Under the pieces are notes generated by a model. It searched no databases, was not told the DNA's origin, and saw only the letters and a program-made list of their open reading frames with translations. A stretch of 64,000 nucleotides of DNA from Escherichia coli (lineage in GTDB: Bacteria > Pseudomonadota > Gammaproteobacteria > Enterobacterales > Enterobacteriaceae), in NCBI RefSeq assembly GCF_016903815.1, contig NZ_CP069973.1, one strand, 5' to 3'. Shown here one piece after another: positions 2,944-37,993 of the stretch. Every line of letters begins with the position of its first letter. Within the stretch, counting starts at the first letter, position 1. A program made the position numbers and the translations under genes.

Positions 2944-3657
2944 TTACCCGCCTAAATACGCACTTCTCACCGCTTCGTTTGCCAGCAGCGCATCGCCGGT
3001 ATCGGAGAGCACCACATGACCGTTTTCCAGCACGTAGCCGCGATCAGCGAGCTTTAGCGCCTGGTTGGCGTTCTGCTCGACGAGGAAGATGGTCATCCCC
3101 TGCTCGCGCAGTTGTTCGATGGTGTCGAAAATTTGCTGGATGATAATCGGTGCCAGCCCGAGCGATGGCTCATCAAGCAGTAGCAAACGCGGGTTACTCA
3201 TCAAAGCGCGACCAATCGCCAGCATCTGCTGTTCACCGCCAGACATAGTGCCCGCTCGCTGAACACGGCGCTCATGGAGACGCGGAAACAGTTCATAGAC
3301 CCACTTTATGCGCTCCTGGAACTGGTCGCGTTCGGCAAAAAAGCCGCCCATCGCCAGGTTCTCTTCCACCGTCATCCGCGAGAAAACACGACGCCCTTCC
3401 GGGACAATCGCCACCGCTTCGCGCATGATTTTCGCCGTCTGCCAGTCGGTAATGTCTTTATCATCAAACACAATTCGCCCGCCGGTGGCGCGCGGGTCGC
3501 CGCATAATGTGCCGAGCAAGGTGGTTTTCCCCGCGCCGTTCGCGCCAATGAGGGTGACAATCTCGCCCTCATTGATATGCAGGCTCACCTCATGCAGCGC
3601 CTGGATTTTGCCGTAGTGGGCGCTGACTTTGTCAAAGGACAACATGACTTTTTCCAT
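2944..3657 (-). CDS. livF: branched-chain amino acid ABC transporter ATPase LivF
   Basis: Track ORF 2944..3669; start trimmed to MEKVMLSFDKV (237 aa); Walker A GANGAGKTT. Confidence 0.93.
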   Translation of the reverse strand: MEKVMLSFDKVSAHYGKIQALHEVSLHINEGEIVTLIGANGAGKTTLLGTLCGDPRATGGRIVFDDKDITDWQTAKIMREAVAIVPEGRRVFSRMTVEENLAMGGFFAERDQFQERIKWVYELFPRLHERRVQRAGTMSGGEQQMLAIGRALMSNPRLLLLDEPSLGLAPIIIQQIFDTIEQLREQGMTIFLVEQNANQALKLADRGYVLENGHVVLSDTGDALLANEAVRSAYLGG

Positions 3658-3658
3658 C

Positions 3659-4426
3659 TTATGCCTCACCTAAATAGGCACGGATCACGTCCGGGTTATT
3701 ACGGATCTGCTCCGGCGTACCGTTTGCCAGCGGCGTCCCCTGGTTGACCACGTAAATTCGGTCTGAAATCCCCATCACCAGCTTCATATCGTGTTCAATC
3801 AACAAGATAGTGGTGTTGTGATGGTTACGCAGTTCGGCAATCAGCTCATCCAGCTCTTTCGTCTCTTTTGGGTTAAGACCCGCCGCCGGTTCATCGAGCA
3901 TTAAAATCTCCGGCTGCGTCACCATACAGCGGGCAATCTCCAGACGGCGCTGGTCACCATAGGCCAGGTTACTCGCCTGACGGTTGGCGTGTTCCAGCAA
4001 ACCAATGCGCTCAAGCCAGGTGGCGGCGCGGTCGAGTGCTTCACTCTGGGCGCGACGGAAAGAGGGGGTTTTCAACAGGCCGGAGAACAGCCCGGTTTTC
4101 AGTTGCTGATGCTGCGCCACCAGCAGGTTTTCAATCACCGTCATTTCACGGAACAGACGCACATGCTGGAAGGTGCGCACCACGCCCATGCGGGCGATTT
4201 GCTGCCCCGGTAAACCTTCCAGGTGCTGATCGCGCAGTAAAATGGTACCGCCGGTGGGTTTGTAGAATCCGGTCAGGCAGTTGAAGACCGTGGTTTTTCC
4301 GGCACCGTTAGGGCCGATTAACGAGACGATCTCCTGCGGGTACAATTCGAGATTGACGTTGTTCACCGCCAGCAGGCCGCCGAAGCGCATCATCAGGCCG
4401 TTAACGGATAATAATGGCTGACTCAT
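3659..4426 (-). CDS. livG: branched-chain amino acid ABC transporter ATPase LivG
   Basis: 255-aa track ORF; Walker [10 protein letters not shown]; liv operon synteny. Confidence 0.95.
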
Positions 4427-5700
4427 GCCTGCTCTCCTTTCGCTGCGCCGTTTTTCAGCTTCAGTTGCGGGCGCGTCATGGGCAGCAAGCCCTGCGGACG
4501 CCAGATCATCATCAGCACCATCAAACCACCGAGCATTAACATGCTGTATTCGTTGAAATCACGCATCAACTCGCGCGATACCACCAGCAGAACAGCCGCC
4601 AGAATCACTGCAAATTGCGAGCCCATACCGCCGAGCACCACTATCGCCAGTACAAAGGCTGATTCAGCAAAGGTGAAGGATTCCGGGCTGACAAAGCCCT
4701 GACGCGCAGCAAACAGCGTTCCGGCAAAACCGGCAAACGCAGCGCTGATGGTAAAGGCAGTCAGCTTGATACGACGCGGGCTTAAGCCCAGCGAACGACA
4801 AGCGATTTCATCTTCACGCAACGCTTCCCACGCACGCCCCAGCGGCATCCGCAGCAGGCGGTTAATGACAAACAGGCTTAACACCACTAGCAGCAACGCC
4901 ACCAGGTACAGGAAGATAACGCGATCGGAGGGATCGTATTTCAGGCCAAAGAAATTACTGAACGTGTCCCAGCCGCCTTCACGGGCGGTACGGCTGAACT
5001 CGAGTCCGAAGAGCGTCGGTTTCGGGATCTGACTGATACCGTTCGGTCCGCCGGTAATTTCGGTGTTATTGAGCAGCAATATGCGCACAATTTCGCCGAA
5101 ACCGAGGGTAACGATCGCCAGATAGTCACCGCGCAGACGCAACACCGGGAAGCCGAGCAGGAAGCCCGCCGCCGCCGCCATCAACCCGGCAATCGGCAGA
5201 CAGGTCCAGAAGCCCAGACCGTAATAGTGATTGAGCAGCGCAAAAGTGTAAGCGCCGATGGCGTAAAAGCCGCCGTATCCCAGCACCAGCAGACCAGAAA
5301 GACCTACCACCACGTTCAGCCCGAGACCGAGAATAATGTAGATCATGGTCAGGGTGGCGATATCCACCGTCCCACGTGAAACCATAAACGGCCACGCCAC
5401 CGCAAGCACCAGCAGCGCCACGAGAAACAGCTTTTGCTTCACCGTGGAGCCATCAATCGCTGGCAGAATAAACTTCGGCCCGGAAACGCTTTTTAGCCCT
5501 TTCTGGAAAGCCGGTCGCAAAAGCTGGAAGAAAAAGACCACCGCCGTGCCGATAAACACCCATTCCCAACGGACGTCTGAAGCGCTATCGACCACCAGTT
5601 TGGTGCCATCCAGCTCGAGTTGCACGCCCATAAAGACGCCCGCCAGCACAAAGAACATCACAGCAGAGAGCAGCGCCATTGCAATATGCATCGGTTTCAT
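4423..5700 (-). CDS. livM: branched-chain amino acid ABC transporter permease LivM
   Basis: 425-aa track ORF, membrane protein, 4-nt overlap with livG and livH. Confidence 0.95.
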
Positions 5701-6623
5701 ACTTTCTCTACCTCCGGGCGACCCAGAATACCGGTCGGCATCACCAGCAGCACCAGAATCAGCAGGGCGAATGAGACCACATCTTTATATTCCGTACTCA
5801 GATAGGCAGAAGAGAGCGCCTCCGCAATCCCCAGGATCAGGCCGCCAATCATCGCCCCCGGAATGCTGCCAATCCCACCGAGCACCGCTGCGGTAAAGGC
5901 TTTCATCCCGGCCATAAAGCCGATGTAGGGGTTAATGACGCCGTAGAACTGACCGAGCAGCACACCCGCCACCGCCGCCATCGCCGCGCCAATCACAAAG
6001 GTCAGCGCAATCACCCGATCGGTGTTGATGCCAAGCAGGCTCGCCATTTTCAGATCTTCCGCGCAGGCACGGCAGGCGCGCCCCATACGGGAATAACGAA
6101 TGAAAATCGTCAGCGCCAGCATGGCGAGGAAAGTAACAATCCATATCACCGCCTGCATGGTGGTAATAGAGGCAGAGAAGTTTTCGCTATGGCCCACCAC
6201 CCACTGACCGTTAAACAGGCTGGGCAGCGCCACGTCGCGCGAACCTTCGGTCAGGCTAACGTAGTTTTGCAGGAAGATAGACATGCCGATTGCGGAAATA
6301 AGCGCAATCAGGCGCTTAGAGTTACGCACCGGGCGGTAAGCCACCCGTTCGATACTCCAGCCGTAGGCGCTGGCAATGACGATTGCGCCGACGAATCCCG
6401 CCGCCACCAGCAACCAGCCGGTATCAATGCCCAGCATCATCAGTGCAGCGATGATCATAAAGGAGACGTAGCTGCCAATCATGTAAACCTCGCCGTGGGC
6501 GAAGTTGATCATGCCGATAATGCCGTAAACCATGGTGTAGCCGATGGCTATCAGCGCGTAGGTACTGCCCAGCGTGACGCCGTTAAACATCTGCTGCAAG
6601 AAATACAAAAACTGCTCAGACAT
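5697..6623 (-). CDS. livH: branched-chain amino acid ABC transporter permease LivH
   Basis: 308-aa track ORF, membrane protein. Confidence 0.95.
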
Positions 6624-7780: not shown

Positions 7781-8203
7781 AGTCAAAAATCCCCATTCGT
7801 GATGTTGTGTTGCTTTGTTTTTATGTGTTAACAAATCAGACTGTTCTTTTTTTATACTGCACTGTTTTTGCCTGTCTGATTAAGGGTTTAGCGCAGTATT
7901 TTGTGATAATAGCGATTAAAATCCCTATTTTTCAGTCGATTAAGAACAGATAATATTCTGCATTTATTGATAGATAAACAGAAAAAAGTGCCGTTGTCAG
8001 CATAAAATAACGGCACAAAGGGCGGAATAGTTCACTACCATTCAGGGGATTATGCTGGGTATTTTTCATTCTCTAATGTTTTAACTTTGTAATTATTGCT
8101 GTTAAAAAATTAATCACCTGCCAAAAGAAATAAAAAAGAGAAAGCCTCCGATTAAATTATTTCGCTACACTGGTTCCACTTTTGTGATTTACACGGGTTC
8201 CCC

Positions 8204-8587
8204 ATGAAGCTGACCATCATTCGATTAGAAAACTTTAGCGACCAGGACCGGATTGACCTGCAAAAGATCTGGCCGGAGTATTCCCCTTCCTCTTTACAGG
8301 TTGACGATAACCACCGTATCTACGCCGCGCGTTTTAACGAGCGCCTTCTCGCGGCCGTGCGGGTAACCTTAAGCGGCACGGAGGGCGCACTGGATTCCCT
8401 GCGCGTGCGGGAAGTCACCCGCCGTCGCGGTGTGGGGCAATATCTGCTGGAAGAGGTTTTGCGTAACAATCCTGGCGTTTCATGCTGGTGGATGGCGGAT
8501 GCAGGCATGGAAGATCGCGGCGTGATGACAGCGTTTATGCAGGCTCTGGGATTTACGGCACAACAGGGCGGCTGGGAGAAGCGTTAA
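8204..8587 (+). CDS. panM: PanD maturation factor PanM/PanZ (GNAT-like)
   Basis: 127-aa track ORF recognised as YhhK/PanM; located between livK and livJ. Confidence 0.8.
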   Translation: MKLTIIRLENFSDQDRIDLQKIWPEYSPSSLQVDDNHRIYAARFNERLLAAVRVTLSGTEGALDSLRVREVTRRRGVGQYLLEEVLRNNPGVSCWWMADAGMEDRGVMTAFMQALGFTAQQGGWEKR

Positions 8588-8628
8588 TCGTCAAGTTTGA
8601 TTTCAAAAGTGACGACCAACGAGAAATT

Positions 8629-8728
<100 letters not shown>

Positions 8729-8786
8729 TGAAGCAACGTACTCGATATTAGCAATTTGGCGGCAACCCAAAGTTGCCGATTAATGA

Positions 8787-9890
8787 TTACTTCGCATCGG
8801 TCGCCGTGCCGTTGGCGTGCCAGTCAAATACGCCGAACTCAAAGCCTTTCAGATCGCCTTTCTCATCCCAGGTCAGCGGCCCCATCACCGTATCCACGGA
8901 GTTCGCTTTCAGGTATTTGGCGATTTCAGCCGGATCGTCAGACTGATTCAGACCCGCCTGCAAAGATTGCAGCGCGGCGTAGGTGGTCCAGACGAATGCG
9001 CCGCTTGGGTCCTGTTTTTTCGCTTTGATCGCATCAACAATGGGTTTGTTCGCCGGAACCTGATCGTAGTTCTTCGGCTTGGTCACCAGCAGTCCTTCCG
9101 CTGATTCACCCGCAATGTTAGACAGCGAGACGTTAGCCACGCCTTCCGGCCCCATAAACTGAGTTTTCAGCCCTGCCGCGCGTGCCTGACGCAGGATTTG
9201 CCCCATTTCCGGGTGATAACCGCCGTAGTAAACGAAGTCGATATTCTCTTTTTTCAGACGCGCCACCAGCGTTGAGAAATCTTTTTCCCCAGCGGTGATA
9301 CCATCAAAGAACACCACGTTAGCATTGCCTTTCTTCAGGCCGTCCTGCACCGCACGCGCCAGACCTTCGCCGTACTGCTGTTTGTCGTGGACGATAGCAA
9401 TACGCTGCGGTTTCACTTTCTCAAGAATATATTTCGCCGCCGTCGGCCCCTGGTCGGAGTCCAGGCCGGTAGTGCGCAGGATCAGCTGATAGCCACGGGC
9501 GGTCAGCTCCGGCGCGGTTGCCGCTGGGGTGATCATTAAAATGCCTTCATCTTCATAGATGTCTGACGCTGGCTGCGTTGATGAAGAACAGAGGTGACCA
9601 ATCACATATTTAATGCCGTCGTTAACGACTTTGTTCGCCACCGCAACCGCCTGTTTCGGGTCACAGGCATCGTCATATTTTACGATTTGCAGTTTGTTGC
9701 CTTTAATGCCGCCTTTAGCATTGATATCCGCTACTGCCTGCTCTGCGCCAGTGAACTCCTGGTCACCGTACTGGGCCACCGGACCAGACATCGCGCCCAC
9801 GACCGCGACTTTAATATCTTCTGCCAGAGCCATATTGCTGAATGCCAGCGCGATACATCCTGCCAGTAACGCTTTACCCTTTATATTCAT
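8787..9890 (-). CDS. livJ: Leu/Ile/Val periplasmic binding protein LivJ
   Basis: Track ORF 8787..9947 trimmed to [23 protein letters not shown]... (367 aa). Confidence 0.9.
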
Positions 9891-29427: not shown

Positions 29428-32400
29428 ATGAGCGGAAAACCGGCGGCGCGTCAGGGCGACATGACGCAGTATGGCGGTAGCATTGTCCAGGGTTCAGCCG
29501 GGGTGCGCATCGGTGCCCCCACCGGCGTGGCCTGTTCGGTGTGCCCCGGCGGGGTGACGTCCGGCCATCCGGTCAATCCGCTGCTCGGCGCGAAGGTCCT
29601 TCCCGGCGAAACCGACCTTGCCCTGCCCGGCCCGCTGCCGTTCATCCTCTCCCGCACCTACAGCAGTTACCGGACAAAAACGCCCGCGCCGGTGGGGAAC
29701 CTCGGCCCCGGCTGGAAAATGCCTGCGGATATCCGCTTACAGCTGCGCGATAACACACTGATACTCAGTGATAACGGCGGCAGAAGCCTGTATTTTGAGC
29801 ACCTGTTTCCCGGTGAGGACGGTTACAGCCGCAGCGAGTCACTCTGGCTGGTGCGCGGCGGCGTGGCGAAACTGGATGAAGGTCACCGGCTGGCCGCACT
29901 CTGGCAGGCGCTGCCGGAAGAGCTTCGCCTGAGTCCGCATCGTTATCTGGCGACGAACAGTCCGCAGGGGCCGTGGTGGGTACTCGGCTGGTGTGAGCGG
30001 GTGCCGGAGGCGGATGAGGTGCTGCCTGCGCCGCTGCCGCCGTACCGGGTACTGACCGGGCTGGTGGACCGCTTCGGGCGCACACAGACGTTCCACCGTG
30101 AGGCTGGCGGCGAAATCACCGGCGTGACGGATGGTGCCGGGCGTCACTTCCGGCTGGTACTGACCACGCAGGCGCAGCGGGCAGAAGAAGCCCGGCAGCA
30201 GGCCTCTTCCGGCGGGACGGAACCGTCCGCTTTTCCTGATACCCTGCCGGGTTACACCGAATATGGCCGGGACAACGGCATCCGTCTGTCTGCCGTGTGG
30301 CTGACGCACGACCCGGAATACCCGGAGAATTTACCTGCCGCGCCGCTGGTGCGCTATGGCTGGACGCCACGCGGCGAACTGGCGGCGGTGTATGACCGCA
30401 GCAATACACAGGTGCGCAGCTTTACTTACGATGATAAATACCGGGGCCGGATGGTGGCGCACCGTCACACGGGCCGGCCGGAAATCCGTTACCGTTACGA
30501 CAGCGACGGGCGGGTGACAGAACAGCTAAACCCGGCAGGCTTAAGCTACACGTATCAGTATGAGAAAGACCGCATCACCATCACCGACAGTATGGACCGC
30601 CGTGAAGTGCTGCACACGCAGGGCGAAGGCGGGCTGAAGCGGGTGGTGAAAAAGGAACACGCGGACGGCAGCGTCACGCAGAGTCAGTTTGATGCGGTGG
30701 GCAGGCTTAAGGCACAGACGGATGCCGCAGGCCGGACGACTGAGTACAGCCCGGATGTGGTGACGGGACTCATCACGCGCATCACCACACCGGATGGCAG
30801 GGCATCGGCATTTTACTATAACCACCACAACCAGTTAACGTCAGCCACCGGGCCTGACGGGCTGGAAATACGCCGGGAATATGATGAATCCGGCCGTCTG
30901 ATTCAGGAAACCGCACACAACGGCGATATCACCCGCTACCGTTATGATAATCCACACAGTGACTTACCCTGCGCAACGGAAGATGCCACCGGCAGCCGGA
31001 AAACCATGACATGGAGCCGTTACGGTCAGTTGCTGACCGTCACTGACTGTTCCGGTTATGTAACCCGTTATGACCATGACCGTTTTGGTCAGGTGACGGC
31101 GGTGCACCGCGAGGAAGGGCTGAGTCAGTACCGCGCATACGACAGCCGTGGACAGTTAATTGCGGTGAAAGACACGCAGGGCCATGAAACGCGGTATGAA
31201 TACAACGCCGCCGGTGACCTGACCGCCGTCATTGCCCCGGACGGCAGCAGAAACGGGACACAGTACGATGCGTGGGGAAAGGCCATCCGTACCACACAGG
31301 GCGGTCTGACGCGCAGTATGGAATACGATGCTGCCGGACGGGTCATCCGCCTGACCAGTGAAAACGGCAGCCACACCACCTTCCGTTACGATGTACTCGA
31401 CCGGCTGATACAGGAAACCGGCTTTGACGGCCGCACACAGCGTTATCACCACGACCTGACCGGCAAACTTATCCGCAGCGAGGATGAGGGGCTGGTCACC
31501 CACTGGCACTATGACGAAGCAGACCGCATCACACAGCGAACGGTGAATGGTGAAACCGCAGAACAGTGGCGGTACGACGAACGCGGCTGGCTGACACAAA
31601 TCAGCCATCTCAGCGAAGGCCACCGGGTGACGGTGCATTACGGGTATGATGAGAAAGGCCGCCTGACCGGTGAGCGCCAGACGGTGCATCACCCGCAGAC
31701 GGAAGCACTGCTCTGGCAGCATGAAACCAGACACGCTTACAACGCGCAGGGACTGGCGAACCGCTGTATACCGGACAGCCTGCCCGCCGTGGAATGGCTG
31801 ACTTACGGCAGCGGCTGGCTGGCAGGCATGAAACTCGGCGACACACCGCTGGTGGATTTCACCCGCGACCGCCTGCACCGGGAAACGCTGCGCAGCTTCG
31901 GCCGTTATGAACTCACCACCGCTTATACCTCTGCCGGGCAGTTACAGAGCCAGCACCTGAACAGCCTGCAGTATGACCGCGATTACACCTGGAACGACAA
32001 CGGCGAACTCATCCGCATCAGCAGCCCGCGACAGACCCGGAGTTACAGCTACAGCGACTCCGGCAGGCTGACCGGCGTCCACACCACCACCTCAAATCTG
32101 GATATCCGCATCCCGTATGCCACGGACCCGGCAGGCAACCGCCTGCCCGACCCGGAGCTGCACCCGGACATCACCCTCAGCATGTGGCCGGATAACCGTA
32201 TCGCCCGTGACGCGCACTATCTTTACCGGTATGACCGTCACGGCAGACTGACGGAGAAAACCGACCTCATCCCGGAAGGGGTTATCCGCACGGATGATGA
32301 GCGGACTCACCGGTACCATTACGACAGTCAGCACCGGCTGGTGCACTACACGCGGACACAATATGCAGAGCCGCTGGTCGAAAGTCGCTATCTTTACGAC

Positions 32401-33615
32401 CCGCTGGGCCGCAGGGTGGCAAAACGGGTGTGGCGGCGTGAACGGGACCTGACGGGCTGGATGTCGCTGTCACGGAAACCGGAAGTGACCTGGTACGGCT
32501 GGGACGGCGACCGGCTGACCACGATACAGAACGACAGAACCCGCATCCAGACGGTTTATCAGCCGGGGAGCTTCACGCCACTCATCAGGGTCGAAACCGC
32601 CACCGGTGAGCTGGCGAAAACGCAGCGCCGCAGCCTGGCGGATGCGCTTCAGCAGTCCGGCGGCGAAGACGGTGGCAGTGTGGTGTTCCCGCCGGTGCTG
32701 GTGCAGATGCTCGACCGGCTGGAAAGTGAAACCCTGGCTGACCGGGTGAGTGAGGAAAGCCGCCGCTGGCTGGCATCGTGCGGCCTGACGGTGGAGCAGA
32801 TGCAAAACCAGATGGACCCGGTGTACACGCCGGCGCGAAAAATCCACCTGTACCACTGCGACCATCGCGGCCTGCCGCTGGCGCTTGTCAGCACGGAAGG
32901 GGCAACAGAATGGTACGCAGAATACGATGAATGGGGTAACCAGCTGAGTGAGGATAACCCGCACCAGCTGCAGCAGCTCATCCGCCTGCCGGGTCAGCAG
33001 TATGATGAGGAGTCAGGCCTGTATTACAACCGCCACCGCTATTATGACCCGCTGCAGGGGCGGTATATCACTCAGGATCCGATTGGACTGAAGGGGGGAT
33101 GGAATTTTTATCAGTATCCGTTAAATCCGGTTCAGTATATAGATTCAATGGGACTGGCATCTAAATATGGACACTTAAATAATGGCGGATATGGAGCGAG
33201 ACCCAACAAACCGCCTACGCCCGATCCAAGTAAGTTGCCAGACATAGCGAAACAATTAAGACTGCCATATCCTATTGACCAGGCCAGTAGTGCGCCTAAT
33301 GTTTTCAAAACATTCTTCAGAGCATTAAGTCCTTACGATTACACACTGTATTGCAGGAAGTGGGTAAAACCCAATCTGACTTGTACGCCGCAGGATGATC
33401 CCCAGTATCCAGGGATGGAGACAAAGACAGCAAGTGATTACCTGCCACAGACAACTTGGCCAACAACTCAATTACCACCAGGATATACTTGTGCAGAACC
33501 CTATTTATTCCCAGACATTAATAAACCCGATGGGCCAGCAACAGCAGGGATAGATGATTTGGGTGAAATTTTAGCTAAAATGAAACAGAGAACATCGAGA
33601 GGAATAAGAAAATGA
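29428..33615 (+). CDS. rhsB: Rhs family polymorphic toxin (PAAR-like N-terminus, YD-repeat core, variable C-terminal toxin tip)
   Basis: 1395-aa track ORF; YD repeats; conserved core end ...[16 protein letters not shown] (DPIGL at 33076-33090); locus position after nikR. Confidence 0.93.
32701..33143 (+). repeat. Rhs core 3' segment, copy 1 of about 443-bp direct repeat
   Basis: Near-identical to 37551..37993 (same reading frame, a few substitutions). Confidence 0.85.
33091..33615 (+). other. variable C-terminal toxin domain of RhsB (after DPxGL motif), function unknown
   Basis: Sequence after DPIGL is AT-richer and Pro/Tyr/Cys-rich with no recognisable catalytic motif. Confidence 0.7.
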
Positions 33616-34181
33616 AAAGAGCTTTGTTCTTTTTGCTGATGATATTCGTTAGTTTTGGTGTTATAGCTAATTGCGAAACACAAGCTAAAGATCAAGATTG
33701 CTTTACCATTTTCACTAAGGGTACTATTTTTTCCGCGTTTCCTGTCTTAAATAATAAAACCATGTGGAGATGGTATCAGAATGAGGACATAGGTGAGTAT
33801 TATTGGCAAACAGAACTTGGTATATGTAAAAATAACAAATTCACACCAAGCGGGGCGAGACTCTTAATTCGCGTCGGATCACTACGCCTTAATGAAAATC
33901 ATGCAACCAAAGGAACGTTGCAGGAGTTGCTAAATACAGCAGAAAAAACGGCGTTTCTCGGCGATCGGTTTAGAAGTTATATAAGAGCGGGTATCTATCA
34001 AAAAAAGAGCAGTGATCCAGCTCAGTTGTTGGCAGTCCTTGATAATTCAATCATGGTTAAATATTTTAAAGATGAGAAGCCAACTTATGCTCGAATGACA
34101 GCACATCTCCCGAACAAAGATGAGTCTTACGAATGTTTAACAAAAGTACAGCATGAACTGCTTCGTAGTGAAGAAAAATAA
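33612..34181 (+). CDS. putative cognate immunity protein of RhsB toxin tip; has N-terminal signal peptide
   Basis: ATG overlaps rhsB stop (ATGA at 33612-33615); 189 aa; [20 protein letters not shown] signal-like N-terminus. Confidence 0.65.
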
Positions 34182-34202
34182 AATCTCTTCCTGAGAAAAT
34201 AA

Positions 34203-34340
34203 ATTAACTATTCGAAAAAATATGTTCTTAATGGGTATCCAGGAACACCAGAAGGTCGATTTGGAAAAATGGATTCCGATGGTAAGAATATCATATATTC
34301 TGAATGTAATGTTTTACCCACAACTTTTGAGATTCGATAG
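34203..34340 (+). pseudogene. possible relic of a toxin C-terminal tail (open frame without start)
   Basis: 45-codon open frame ...YSKKYVLNGYPGTPEGRFGKMDSDGKNIIYSECNVLPTTFEIR ending 10 nt before the next small ORF start. Confidence 0.3.
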
Positions 34341-34349
34341 GTGTAGAGC

Positions 34350-34697
34350 ATGAGAAACTCACTAATATTACTTATTATGATATTGTTTACAATATCACAC
34401 TCAGTATTTGGAAAAGAAAATTCAGTGGAAATTTTAGTAAATAGTCGTGAAATGGCTTTGGAATTATCATATGTTTATATTAAATATATATACGGGAAAG
34501 AAAAAGCAGAATTTCAGAAACCATATAGTATTACAGATGACAATAATTGTTGGAAAATCGAGGGAAAACAACCGAAGACGTTAGGAGGAAATTTTACAAT
34601 ACTAATAGCGAAAAAAGATGGGCAAGCGTTGGATGTAATACACAAAATAATCCACTGTTCAAACGATTCAAATATTTTACCAAGGTGTGTTTCATAA
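34350..34697 (+). CDS. small secreted NTF2-like putative orphan immunity protein
   Basis: 115-aa track ORF with signal peptide; paralogous to ORF 36296..36562. Confidence 0.6.
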   Translation: MRNSLILLIMILFTISHSVFGKENSVEILVNSREMALELSYVYIKYIYGKEKAEFQKPYSITDDNNCWKIEGKQPKTLGGNFTILIAKKDGQALDVIHKIIHCSNDSNILPRCVS

Positions 34698-36295: not shown

Positions 36296-36562
36296 ATGCG
36301 CAAGTATGAATGTGAGGGGAAATACACCGTTAGAAATTTGGTAAAAAATAAAGCTATAGCATTGGAATTAGCTGAGATGTATGTTAAAAATCGTTATGGG
36401 CATGATGCCGCAGAAGAAGAAAAACCATACAAAATCATGGAATTACCAACAAGTTGGATTGTTGAAGGCACCATTGAATCAGACCAAATTGCTGGTAGGG
36501 TTTTTATTATAGAAATAGGCAAAAATGACGGGAGAATTCTAAATTTTGGCCACGGAAAATAA
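36296..36562 (+). CDS. NTF2-like putative orphan immunity protein, paralog of 34350..34697 lacking signal peptide
   Basis: 88-aa track ORF; aligns by eye with the 34350 ORF (ALELAEMYVKNRYG.../KPY.I...W..EG...DG..L). Confidence 0.55.
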   Translation: MRKYECEGKYTVRNLVKNKAIALELAEMYVKNRYGHDAAEEEKPYKIMELPTSWIVEGTIESDQIAGRVFIIEIGKNDGRILNFGHGK

Positions 36563-37550: not shown

Positions 37551-37993
37551 GTGCAGATGCTCGACCGGCTGGAAAGTGAAATCCTGGCTGACCGGGTGAG
37601 TGAGGAAAGCCGCCGCTGGCTGGCATCGTGCGGCCTGACGGTGAAGCAGATGCAAAACCAGATGGACCCGGTGTACACGCCGGCGCGAAAAATCCACCTG
37701 TACCACTGCGACCATCGCGGCCTGCCGCTGGTGCTTATCAGCACGGAAGGGGCAACAGAATGGTGCGCAGAATACGATGAATGGGGCAACCTGCTGAATG
37801 AAGAGAACCCGCAACAGCTGCAGCAACTCATCCGCCTGCCGGGTCAGCAGTATGATGAGGAGTCCGGCCTGTATTACAACCGCCACCGCTATTATGATCC
37901 GCTGCAGGGGAGGTATATCACTCAGGATTCGATTGGGCTGAAGGGGGGATGGAATTTTTATGAGTATCCGTTGAATCCGGTTCAGTATATAGA
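37551..37993 (+). repeat. Rhs core 3' segment, copy 2 of direct repeat
   Basis: Matches 32701..33143; DPIGL motif altered to DSIGL in this copy. Confidence 0.85.

Follow-up and report, generated by a model that had tools for sequence, protein, structure and literature searches.

A putatively exported YbfC-family partner and a predicted envelope-acting Rhs toxin tip at the nikR-rhsB locus of Escherichia coli

The Rhs gene and its cleavage motifs

The window, i.e. the whole stretch of 64,000 nucleotides that was analysed, covers the nikR-rhsB locus of E. coli. It contains a full-length Rhs ORF, followed by a small partner ORF that overlaps its stop codon (Table 1). The Rhs core is composed of a short PAAR-like N-terminal motif, a DUF6531 domain (Pfam, E = 4.5e-18), a YD-repeat shell (TIGR01643, E = 5.9e-40) and a C-terminal aspartyl-protease plug. 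The NCBIfam model NF041261 (RHS_core) was matched as a full equivalog over residues 1-1243 with 2616 bits, at a curated cut-off of 2000 bits. Similarity of the N-terminus to the Pfam PAAR_motif was weak (E = 0.13; aa 2-20, model positions 51-69 of 70). Within the first 300 residues, Pfam gave no hit of the transmembrane or prePAAR type. No vgrG, eag or T6SS gene adjoined rhs in the window; its neighbours were nikR and orphan immunity genes. Because no T6SS gene is adjacent and the PAAR match is weak, delivery was inferred from relatives and from the literature, in which 'neighbourless' Rhs proteins of E. coli have been described (PMC6730261).

The boundary between core and tip has the form PxxxxDPxGL, followed after 17 residues by a second motif of the DPxGL type in which Ser takes the place of the consensus Pro (DSMGL). 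In Photorhabdus Rhs1, two DPLGL motifs are likewise located 17 residues apart, and the protein is cut after the second (PMC8636562). By analogy, autocleavage of the window protein is predicted after L1243. The first 22 residues past DPIGL still belong to the conserved core, since the RHS_core model ends at aa 1243, and the similarity of the K-12 rhsC main gene to the window stops at position 33144. The released toxin probably starts 22 residues after DPIGL, past DSMGL. The GC content falls stepwise along the core (0.62), the tip (0.43) and the partner gene (0.375), which points to an imported tip and immunity gene. As is typical of a variable tip, its composition differs from that of the core and a small ORF follows.

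Table 1. Coordinates of the Rhs gene, its tip and the partner gene in the window.
Feature	Position	Strand	Remarks
Rhs ORF	29428..33615		1395 aa
Rhs core, aa 1-1243	29428..33156	+	NF041261 and DUF6531 matches; GC 0.62
Block 96.5% identical to K-12 orphan ybfO'-ybfC	32110..34223	+	blastn against NC_000913, 729-738 kb
First DPxGL motif, DPIGL, aa 1217-1221	33076..33090	+	sole occurrence in the Rhs protein
Second motif, DSMGL, aa 1239-1243	33142..33156	+	spacer to DPIGL exactly 17 residues
Pro/Gly-rich linker, aa 1244-1282	33157..33273	+	8 Pro in 39 residues; pI 9.9
Conserved toxin domain, aa 1283-1395, ~113 aa	33274..33612	+	family alignment A4
Codons of the three conserved Cys of the toxin domain	33352-33354, 33382-33384, 33490-33492		
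Partner ORF	33612..34181		189 aa
ATGA overlap of partner start and rhs stop	33612..33615	+	sequence AAAATGAAAAG
Predicted Sec signal peptide, 19 aa	33612..33668	+	cleavage between VIA and NC; sequence features, family conservation
Mature YbfC-family protein, 170 aa	33669..34181 (stop codon included)	+	four conserved Cys; presumed periplasmic immunity protein

Sequence features of the tip and of the partner protein

The tip after DPIGL had been described in the original prediction as a Cys-, Pro- and Tyr-rich stretch of 175 residues with four cysteines. Its length is in fact 174 residues, cysteine occurs three times (at tip positions 88, 98 and 134), and Cys is not enriched (P = 0.3); the ORF with four cysteines is the partner. 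The enrichment in Pro and Tyr was confirmed, with 24 of 174 residues being Pro (13.8%; binomial P = 8e-7, the frequency in the E. coli proteome being ~4.4%) and 13 of 174 being Tyr (P = 1e-3). One third of the prolines (8/24) are located in a poorly conserved linker, which varies in length and sequence among distant homologues and was modelled by AlphaFold with a pLDDT below 50.

The toxin domain itself is conserved. Its family is characterized by the motif SPYDY..YC.KW (alignment A4) and by the conserved residues C75, P96, P106, G108, C111, A129 and D133 (numbering from S1245). The domain ends in a cationic amphipathic helix with RK as last residues, and the C-terminus is basic across the family alignment. 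Histidine is absent from the domain, and none is conserved across the family alignment. No hydrophobic segment was found in the tip (maximum 19-residue Kyte-Doolittle mean 0.14; GRAVY of the domain -0.69). The AlphaFold model of the toxin, based on an alignment of 10 sequences, was unreliable (pLDDT 47), so that no function could be derived from the fold. Tip and partner were compared as single sequences to Pfam, NCBIfam, PADLOC, PHROGs and PDB sequences, and only the tail of the Rhs core was matched; comparison of the family alignments of both proteins to Pfam and PDB gave no match.

Three kinds of envelope toxin were considered for the tip and rejected: a Cys-His peptidoglycan amidase of the NlpC/P60 or Tae families (no conserved His, no profile match), an HExxH metallopeptidase (motif absent from the tip, no metal-site motif, no profile match), and a classical pore-former or membrane-inserting toxin of the Tse5 or colicin type (no hydrophobic segment). 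The sequence features argue against these activities; what remains is either an enzyme of non-canonical type working with Cys, Asp or Tyr, or a protein that binds some component of the envelope stoichiometrically.

As the original prediction stated, the partner ORF is coupled to rhs by an ATGA, and it starts with a putative signal peptide, as judged from sequence features and conservation in homologues. Two basic residues are followed by an uncharged hydrophobic stretch of 16 residues and a V-I-A site fitting the -3/-1 rule. The mean Kyte-Doolittle hydropathy is 2.95 over 11 residues (2.64 for the signal peptide of NikA), which ranks the protein tied 7th among the 114 window ORFs of at least 100 aa. 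A signal peptide is kept by all full-length homologues, 22 of them enterobacterial and 6 distant, with identities as low as 21%; the AXA-type site is retained within the family, whereas the sequence of the signal peptides itself is not conserved. The mature protein was predicted to be a soluble beta-sandwich. In the enterobacterial set two cysteines, Cys30 and Cys175, never vary and two others, Cys21 and Cys72, hardly do, in accordance with the expectation for disulfides formed outside the cytoplasm. A scan for an internal promoter of the partner gene gave no more sites than shuffled sequence. The protein belongs to the YbfC family, with similarity over the full length and 175 of 189 residues identical to b0704, and the family profile retrieved only such proteins. 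YbfC had been annotated earlier as a 'putative secreted protein' (PMC6033998).

Instead of being soluble, the partner might be tethered in the same compartment, as a lipoprotein acylated on Cys21 or through an uncleaved inner-membrane signal-anchor, and neutralize the toxin at the membrane surface. The near invariance of Cys21 among the enterobacterial homologues would fit acylation, but Cys72 is present wherever Cys21 is, a pattern that fits a disulfide between the two better than acylation. Likewise, IAA, MAS, IGA or ISA precede Cys21 in a lipobox-like manner in Citrobacter, Kluyvera and Salmonella salamae, and IAAC and ISAC do fit the consensus [LVI][ASTVI][GAS]C, whereas in the alleles of the window and of K-12 position -1 is taken by N or D (IAN-C, IAD-C), which does not fit; a lipoprotein reading of the V-I-A-N-C site in the window was rejected on this ground. 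Four of the six distant members lack this Cys and have kept the AXA site (ASA-M, AIA-N, LYA-E, AFA-E). A tethered partner thus appears improbable, even though the 16-residue hydrophobic stretch lies in the upper length range of cleaved signals and lipoprotein immunity has been reported for an Rhs-related periplasmic toxin (PMC12992299).

Occurrence of the module in K-12, other E. coli and distant taxa

The DNA of the module is not novel, being shared with K-12 and most E. coli genomes. Downstream of rhsC, K-12 carries the orphan pair ybfO' (b0703, pseudogene) and ybfC (b0704), which agrees with the window module in 171 of 174 tip residues and in 92.6% of the partner residues, shows 96.5% DNA identity over 2.1 kb and has the identical 4-nt overlap. 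The conserved block spans the end of the Rhs core, the tip and the immunity gene. In K-12 the tip is part of a truncated Rhs fragment at rhsC, whereas in the window it is in frame on a full-length Rhs at nikR-rhsB; the rhsB gene of K-12 bears another tip, with the partner YhhH (PF15631), while the rhsB locus of the window has the ybfO'-type tip. Purifying selection acts on both genes, the comparison of the window and K-12 alleles giving pN/pS values of 0.08 (toxin) and 0.27 (partner). Of 5426 complete genomes of E. coli, 3517 (~65%) contain the module, which in most of them bears the annotation of an Rhs fragment together with ybfC. In 284 genomes the tip is in frame on a full-length Rhs (at least 99% identity). 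No functional study of the ybfC/ybfO pair was found in the literature searched, including that on periplasm-acting Rhs tips.

An exhaustive profile search with the toxin tip yielded only 28 representatives, none of known function, and an Rhs core precedes the tip wherever upstream sequence has been preserved. Five toxin homologues from distant loci, with 34-42% identity, were inspected. At all five a YbfC-family ORF (21-32% identity) overlaps or adjoins the 3' end of the toxin gene, and its product has its own signal peptide with an AXA site and two invariant cysteines. The 4-nt ATGA overlap recurs in the distant loci L004, L007 and L008, and both ORFs are intact in the distant taxa. Related modules are located in tssB-hcp-vgrG-rhs islands or beside vgrG-DUF2169-PAAR-like genes.

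Compartment of action and possible mechanism

The compartment of an immunity protein is taken in the field as an indicator of the compartment of the toxin's target (PMC6833914). In view of the conserved export signal of the partner, the toxin is most likely directed, from the periplasmic side, against the envelope and not against DNA or RNA. The Rhs core is uninformative in this respect, because other alleles bear cytoplasm-acting tips on the same core. Comparison supports the envelope-acting reading with exported immunity, as signal peptides, cysteines and linkage are kept in distant homologues. The module is thus considered, with a probability of about 0.7, to be the toxin-immunity pair of a polymorphic Rhs toxin with a periplasmic or envelope site of action. 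The original prediction had concluded the same from the exported partner, and the homologues back this. It had also set the tip apart from the usual paradigm of cytoplasmic nucleases, which is fair, but precedents exist (PMC12992299, PMC10684867).

Among known systems, the Rhs2 DNase of Serratia and the ADP-ribosyltransferase Rhs1-Tre23 of Photorhabdus share with the window protein the YD-repeat shell and two DPxGL-type motifs 17 residues apart. In these systems, too, the variable tip is low in GC, an immunity gene follows it and orphan modules occur in arrays. Their immunity proteins are cytoplasmic, whereas the window partner has a predicted signal peptide and conserved cysteines. Toxicity of Rhs2 is independent of DsbA of the target; T6SS effectors that require the target cell's DsbA have been documented (PMC5792426). 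The Serratia pairs Ssp2-Rap2a and Ssp4-Sip4 resemble the window module in that immunity is exported and the effector cysteines could be oxidized by the target's DsbA (PMC5792426). However, Ssp2 and Ssp4 are free-standing cargo effectors and not Rhs tips, and no sequence or profile similarity of these pairs to the window pair was found. Similar in layout is SARI_02727/SARI_02726 of Salmonella arizonae, a small relative of an Rhs C-terminus that is toxic in the periplasm, with a partner bearing an export signal (PMC12992299). SARI_02727 resembles the VgrG2b metallopeptidase, whereas the window toxin domain is devoid of histidine, and SARI_02726 is a DUF7480 lipoprotein, whereas the window partner matches no Pfam family. 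Tse5 (RhsP1) of Pseudomonas aeruginosa is described in two reports as a pore-forming Rhs tip that acts on the envelope rather than on nucleic acids (PMC10684867, PMC9637101). It inserts into the membrane, in contrast to the window tip, which has no hydrophobic segment and is accompanied by a partner predicted to be a soluble beta-sandwich.

Most characterized Rhs tips are nucleases or other enzymes acting in the cytoplasm (PMC8636562, PMC6730261), and no peptidoglycan- or lipid-degrading signature was detectable in the tip. The toxin could accordingly be a cytoplasm-acting one as well, with the exported partner serving as an accessory factor, or as a periplasmic interceptor before the inner membrane is crossed, and not as classical immunity. 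This was judged very unlikely in view of the translationally coupled linkage of the two families, which survives deep divergence and is accompanied by no third conserved ORF. Moreover, orphan copies always retain the toxin-partner pair, the toxin cysteines are conserved, and neither a hydrophobic segment in the tip nor, among the N-terminal 300 residues, a Pfam hit of the transmembrane or prePAAR type was found. Least probable of all is that the module is an inactive relic, moved by recombination at rhs loci, undelivered and without a present role, as might be supposed from the annotation of the toxin part in K-12 as a pseudogene fragment (ybfO), the fact that K-12 is not known to have a T6SS, the annotation as a fragment in most genomes and the weak PAAR match; this is opposed by the in-frame tip on a 1395-aa Rhs in the window and likewise in the 284 genomes, the low pN/pS of toxin and partner, and the intact ORFs in distant taxa. 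Strong up-regulation of ybfC and rhsC transcripts, as reported for a set of STEC strains (PMC6033998), argues in the same direction.

For an envelope-acting toxin with exported immunity, the following course may be proposed. The C-terminal fragment would be enclosed by the Rhs shell and, presumably through a type VI secretion system, would reach a neighbouring cell. Following delivery, aspartyl autoproteolysis after DSMGL would release a fragment of 152 residues, consisting of the flexible Pro-rich linker and the domain of ~113 residues. The domain would fold in the oxidizing periplasm, its three conserved cysteines probably forming one disulfide and possibly leaving one free thiol, and would act on a target accessible from there. 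The translationally coupled YbfC-family protein would protect the producer and any cell with an orphan copy. Sec would export this protein, signal peptidase I would cleave it behind VIA and disulfides would stabilize it; as a soluble beta-sandwich it may bind the toxin domain in the periplasm and neutralize it in this way. As a tentative and rather unlikely extension, the domain could represent a new kind of T6SS/Rhs toxin, namely a small, disulfide-stabilized, non-enzymatic binder that would poison the cell by occupying an essential envelope component on the periplasmic side, countered by the periplasmic beta-sandwich.

On present evidence, the pair is one more uncharacterized toxin-immunity family within a well-known system, and not a new type of system. 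Neither of its two proteins can be placed in a described family, although the pair occurs in ~65% of complete genomes of E. coli and in K-12. Action outside the cytoplasm is known for few Rhs tips, and a target there would extend the Rhs repertoire by an envelope-directed activity. This could also explain why many strains retain ybfC without the full toxin, plausibly as protection against neighbours. If the toxin were a binder of this kind, two thirds of the sequenced E. coli, K-12 included, would carry an unrecognized envelope-directed weapon or at least the antidote to it, and a vulnerable target in the envelope could be traced through the toxin.

The Rhs locus and the extent of the tip

Core, motifs and module layout all place the Rhs-partner pair among the Rhs polymorphic toxins. 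It lies at the rhsB locus of the E. coli chromosome, and the sequence surrounding it is identical to strain 7/2 (NZ_CP023820). There, nikABCDE-nikR is followed by an 'RHS element core protein' of 1395 aa and a 'hypothetical protein' of 189 aa. A row of orphan immunity genes (two NTF2-fold, DUF6258, pentapeptide repeat, yibA) comes next, then an Rhs fragment, remnants of IS1 and ISAs1 and, last, yhhJ. At the K-12 rhsB locus, rhsB carries another tip and is accompanied by the PF15631 protein YhhH. The GC content is 0.62 in the core, drops to 0.43 in the tip and is lower still (0.375) in the partner gene, which is ATGA-coupled to rhs as proposed.

Features of the rhsB region in the window
Feature	Coordinates	Strand	Remarks
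Rhs ORF	29428..33615	+	One DPIGL only, aa 1217-1221
Rhs N-terminus	29428..29560	+	Weak partial Pfam PAAR_motif match, aa 2-20, E = 0.13; then DUF6531
Predicted released fragment (likely)	33157..33612		A1244-K1395, 152 aa
Overlap ATGA, rhs stop and partner start	33612-33615	+	
Partner ORF	33612..34181		189 aa, YbfC family
Orphan 'NTF2 fold immunity protein' no. 1	34350..34697	+	RefSeq start at ~34425
Second NTF2-fold orphan	36296..36562		
Orphan Rhs C-terminal fragment	37551..38216	+	Own DSIGL...DPFGL motifs, different tip

No T6SS gene, vgrG or eag was found near rhs within the window, its product counting among the 'neighbourless' E. coli Rhs proteins. The orphan Rhs fragment, annotated as incomplete in RefSeq, directly follows yibA, which in K-12 is the gene after rhsA; the IS1 and ISAs1 remnants lie farther downstream.

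The original prediction described the tip as 175 residues after DPIGL, with four cysteines and rich in Cys, Pro and Tyr. This is confirmed in part: counting gave 174 residues and three cysteines, and it is the partner that has four. Compared with typical E. coli background residue frequencies, Pro (24 residues, 13.8%, P = 8e-7) and Tyr (13 residues, 7.5%, P = 1e-3) were enriched and Cys was not (P = 0.3). The NCBIfam RHS_core model spans aa 1-1243, similarity to the main gene of K-12 rhsC ends at nt 33144, and a second motif, DSMGL, stands exactly 17 residues past DPIGL, so the likely cleavage site was placed after L1243, 22 residues beyond the boundary first assumed. Photorhabdus Rhs1 is described as having two DPLGL motifs at this 17-residue spacing and as being cleaved behind the second (PMC8636562). 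The first ~39 residues of the predicted fragment are Pro/Gly-rich, hold 8 of the 24 tip prolines and differ in length and sequence among relatives; the last ~113 residues form the conserved domain.

Predicted export of the partner

A signal peptide had been claimed for the downstream ORF, and the analysis bears this out: the predicted leader has the three Sec regions and a -3/-1 site and is conserved in homologues. Its hydrophobic score is tied seventh among the window's 114 ORFs of at least 100 aa, above NikA. Such a leader was present in all 22 full-length enterobacterial homologues, and six distant family members adjoining distant toxin homologues keep one as well (ending ...SALA/CE, ...NASA/MT, ...NAIA/ND, ...VSALA/CE, ...LILYA/EV and ...NPAFA/ER), their mature parts being only 21-32% identical to the window partner. 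This comparison is stronger evidence for export than the leader features of the window partner. Cys30 and Cys175 are invariant through the whole family, and Cys21 and Cys72 are gained or lost together, a pattern as would be expected for disulfides of an exported protein.

A lipoprotein reading was rejected for the window partner, which has N at position -1 and misfits the lipobox; a soluble periplasmic protein is therefore favoured and is the best reading of the sequence. Some Citrobacter and Kluyvera alleles do fit the lipobox, and lipidation is possible in some relatives. Over residues 17-21 of the aligned partner family, the position preceding Cys21 varies: Citrobacter, Kluyvera and S. salamae have A or S there, which suits a lipobox, whereas the N or D of Escherichia and the T or Y of some Kluyvera and Citrobacter homologues do not. 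The family may switch between lipoprotein and soluble periplasmic forms.

The first NTF2-fold orphan ORF extends upstream of its RefSeq start to an ATG, adding MRNSLILLIMILFTISHSVFG/KEN. This leader resembles a signal peptide and has a hydrophobic score (3.38) that exceeds the YbfC-like partner's; the island may thus encode another exported immunity protein besides that partner. The second NTF2-fold orphan is without such a leader.

The toxin family, its linkage to the partner and the K-12 copy

Neither protein gave a match in Pfam, NCBIfam, PADLOC, PHROGs or PDB sequences, nor did Pfam and PDB searches repeated with family alignments. A toxin profile run exhaustively against 1.84 billion representative proteins yielded just 28 toxin relatives, none with an assigned activity; all those with N-terminal sequence retained sit on an Rhs core ending DPIGL...DPxGL. 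The family alignment contains the motif SPYDY..YC.KW. Three cysteines (Rhs C1309, C1319, C1355) are conserved, as are a number of Pro, Gly and aromatic positions; the C-terminus is basic, an amphipathic cationic helix there carries an invariant Asp, and no histidine is conserved. The tip has no hydrophobic segment (top 19-residue hydropathy 0.14). An AlphaFold model from the shallow alignment was unreliable (pLDDT 47). The conserved residues speak against a Cys-His amidase, an HExxH peptidase and a membrane-spanning pore-former; either an unusual enzyme that relies on Cys, Asp or Tyr or a toxin of the binding type would fit them.

In the five distant toxin loci looked up, where the homologue has 34-42% identity to the window tip, the toxin is each time followed by a YbfC-family ORF of 188-207 aa, with a 4-nt overlap or a few bases apart. 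Orphan copies in K-12 and on Citrobacter-type contigs also keep toxin and partner paired. Such linkage across deep divergence looks like that of a cognate toxin-immunity pair. The Citrobacter-type module (toxin 70% identical) lies directly past tssB-hcp-vgrG and a complete Rhs that bears another tip, and other relatives adjoin vgrG, DUF2169 and a PAAR-like gene; these neighbourhoods connect the family with islands of type VI secretion genes. A second, orphan partner copy was seen at one of the loci examined (positions 3132..5976 of the locus sequence from GCA_024809975.1), where a full-length Rhs with another tip is followed by an orphan family toxin and two tandem YbfC-family genes, each with its own signal peptide. 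This arrangement looks like immunity-gene accumulation.

With K-12 YbfC the partner shares 92.6% identity, the tip matches the end of the K-12 pseudogene ybfO at 171/174 residues, and the shared block 32110..34223 has 96.5% DNA identity. Thus in K-12 the module is an orphan located downstream of rhsC, and in the window it is joined to a complete Rhs at the rhsB locus. Of 5426 complete E. coli genomes, 3517 have the variable part plus partner (33160..34181) at a coverage of at least 80%, nearly all of them in a single copy. Annotation as in the window and an identity of at least 99% were seen for 284 genomes; the K-12-type allele occurs in ~3300, for the most part on Rhs fragments but at times on a full-length Rhs. 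Between window 33091..34181 and positions 8130..9220 of the K-12 locus sequence, three of 174 toxin residues and 14 of 189 partner residues differ. pS is similar (toxin 0.09, partner 0.11); the pN/pS values, 0.08 (toxin) and 0.27 (partner), show purifying selection on both genes. Between these alleles, the immunity protein diverges faster than the toxin to be recognised.

A search of the literature for ybfC, ybfO and the accession numbers found no functional work. One table lists ybfC as a 'putative secreted protein', and strong up-regulation of ybfC and rhsC is reported there for a group of STEC strains (PMC6033998).

Proposed mechanism and standing among Rhs toxins

The compartment of an immunity protein is, by a standard rule in the field, a marker of the target compartment (PMC6833914). 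The proposal that an exported partner implies a toxin acting in the periplasm or on the envelope is supported by the comparison of homologues, as a likely reading. In the best-supported mechanism, the tip would be carried by the Rhs shell, delivered into a neighbour, presumably via a T6SS, and freed by autoproteolysis after DSMGL. It would then fold in the periplasm, perhaps in dependence on DsbA of the target cell, as is the case for Ssp2 and Ssp4 (PMC5792426), and hit something periplasm-accessible. The Sec-exported YbfC-type protein would bind it there and neutralise it.

The remark that this departs from the usual cytoplasmic-nuclease paradigm is fair, but the pair does not break a paradigm. 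Precedents exist: a Salmonella arizonae Rhs-related C-terminal protein shows toxicity in the periplasm and is countered by a lipoprotein immunity protein (PMC12992299), and P. aeruginosa Tse5 is described as a pore-forming Rhs toxin (PMC10684867). Neither has detectable sequence similarity to the window pair, which belongs to a small, mostly uncharacterised set of Rhs tips with exported partners. As DNA the module is known, and the pair is common, present in K-12 and easily tested.
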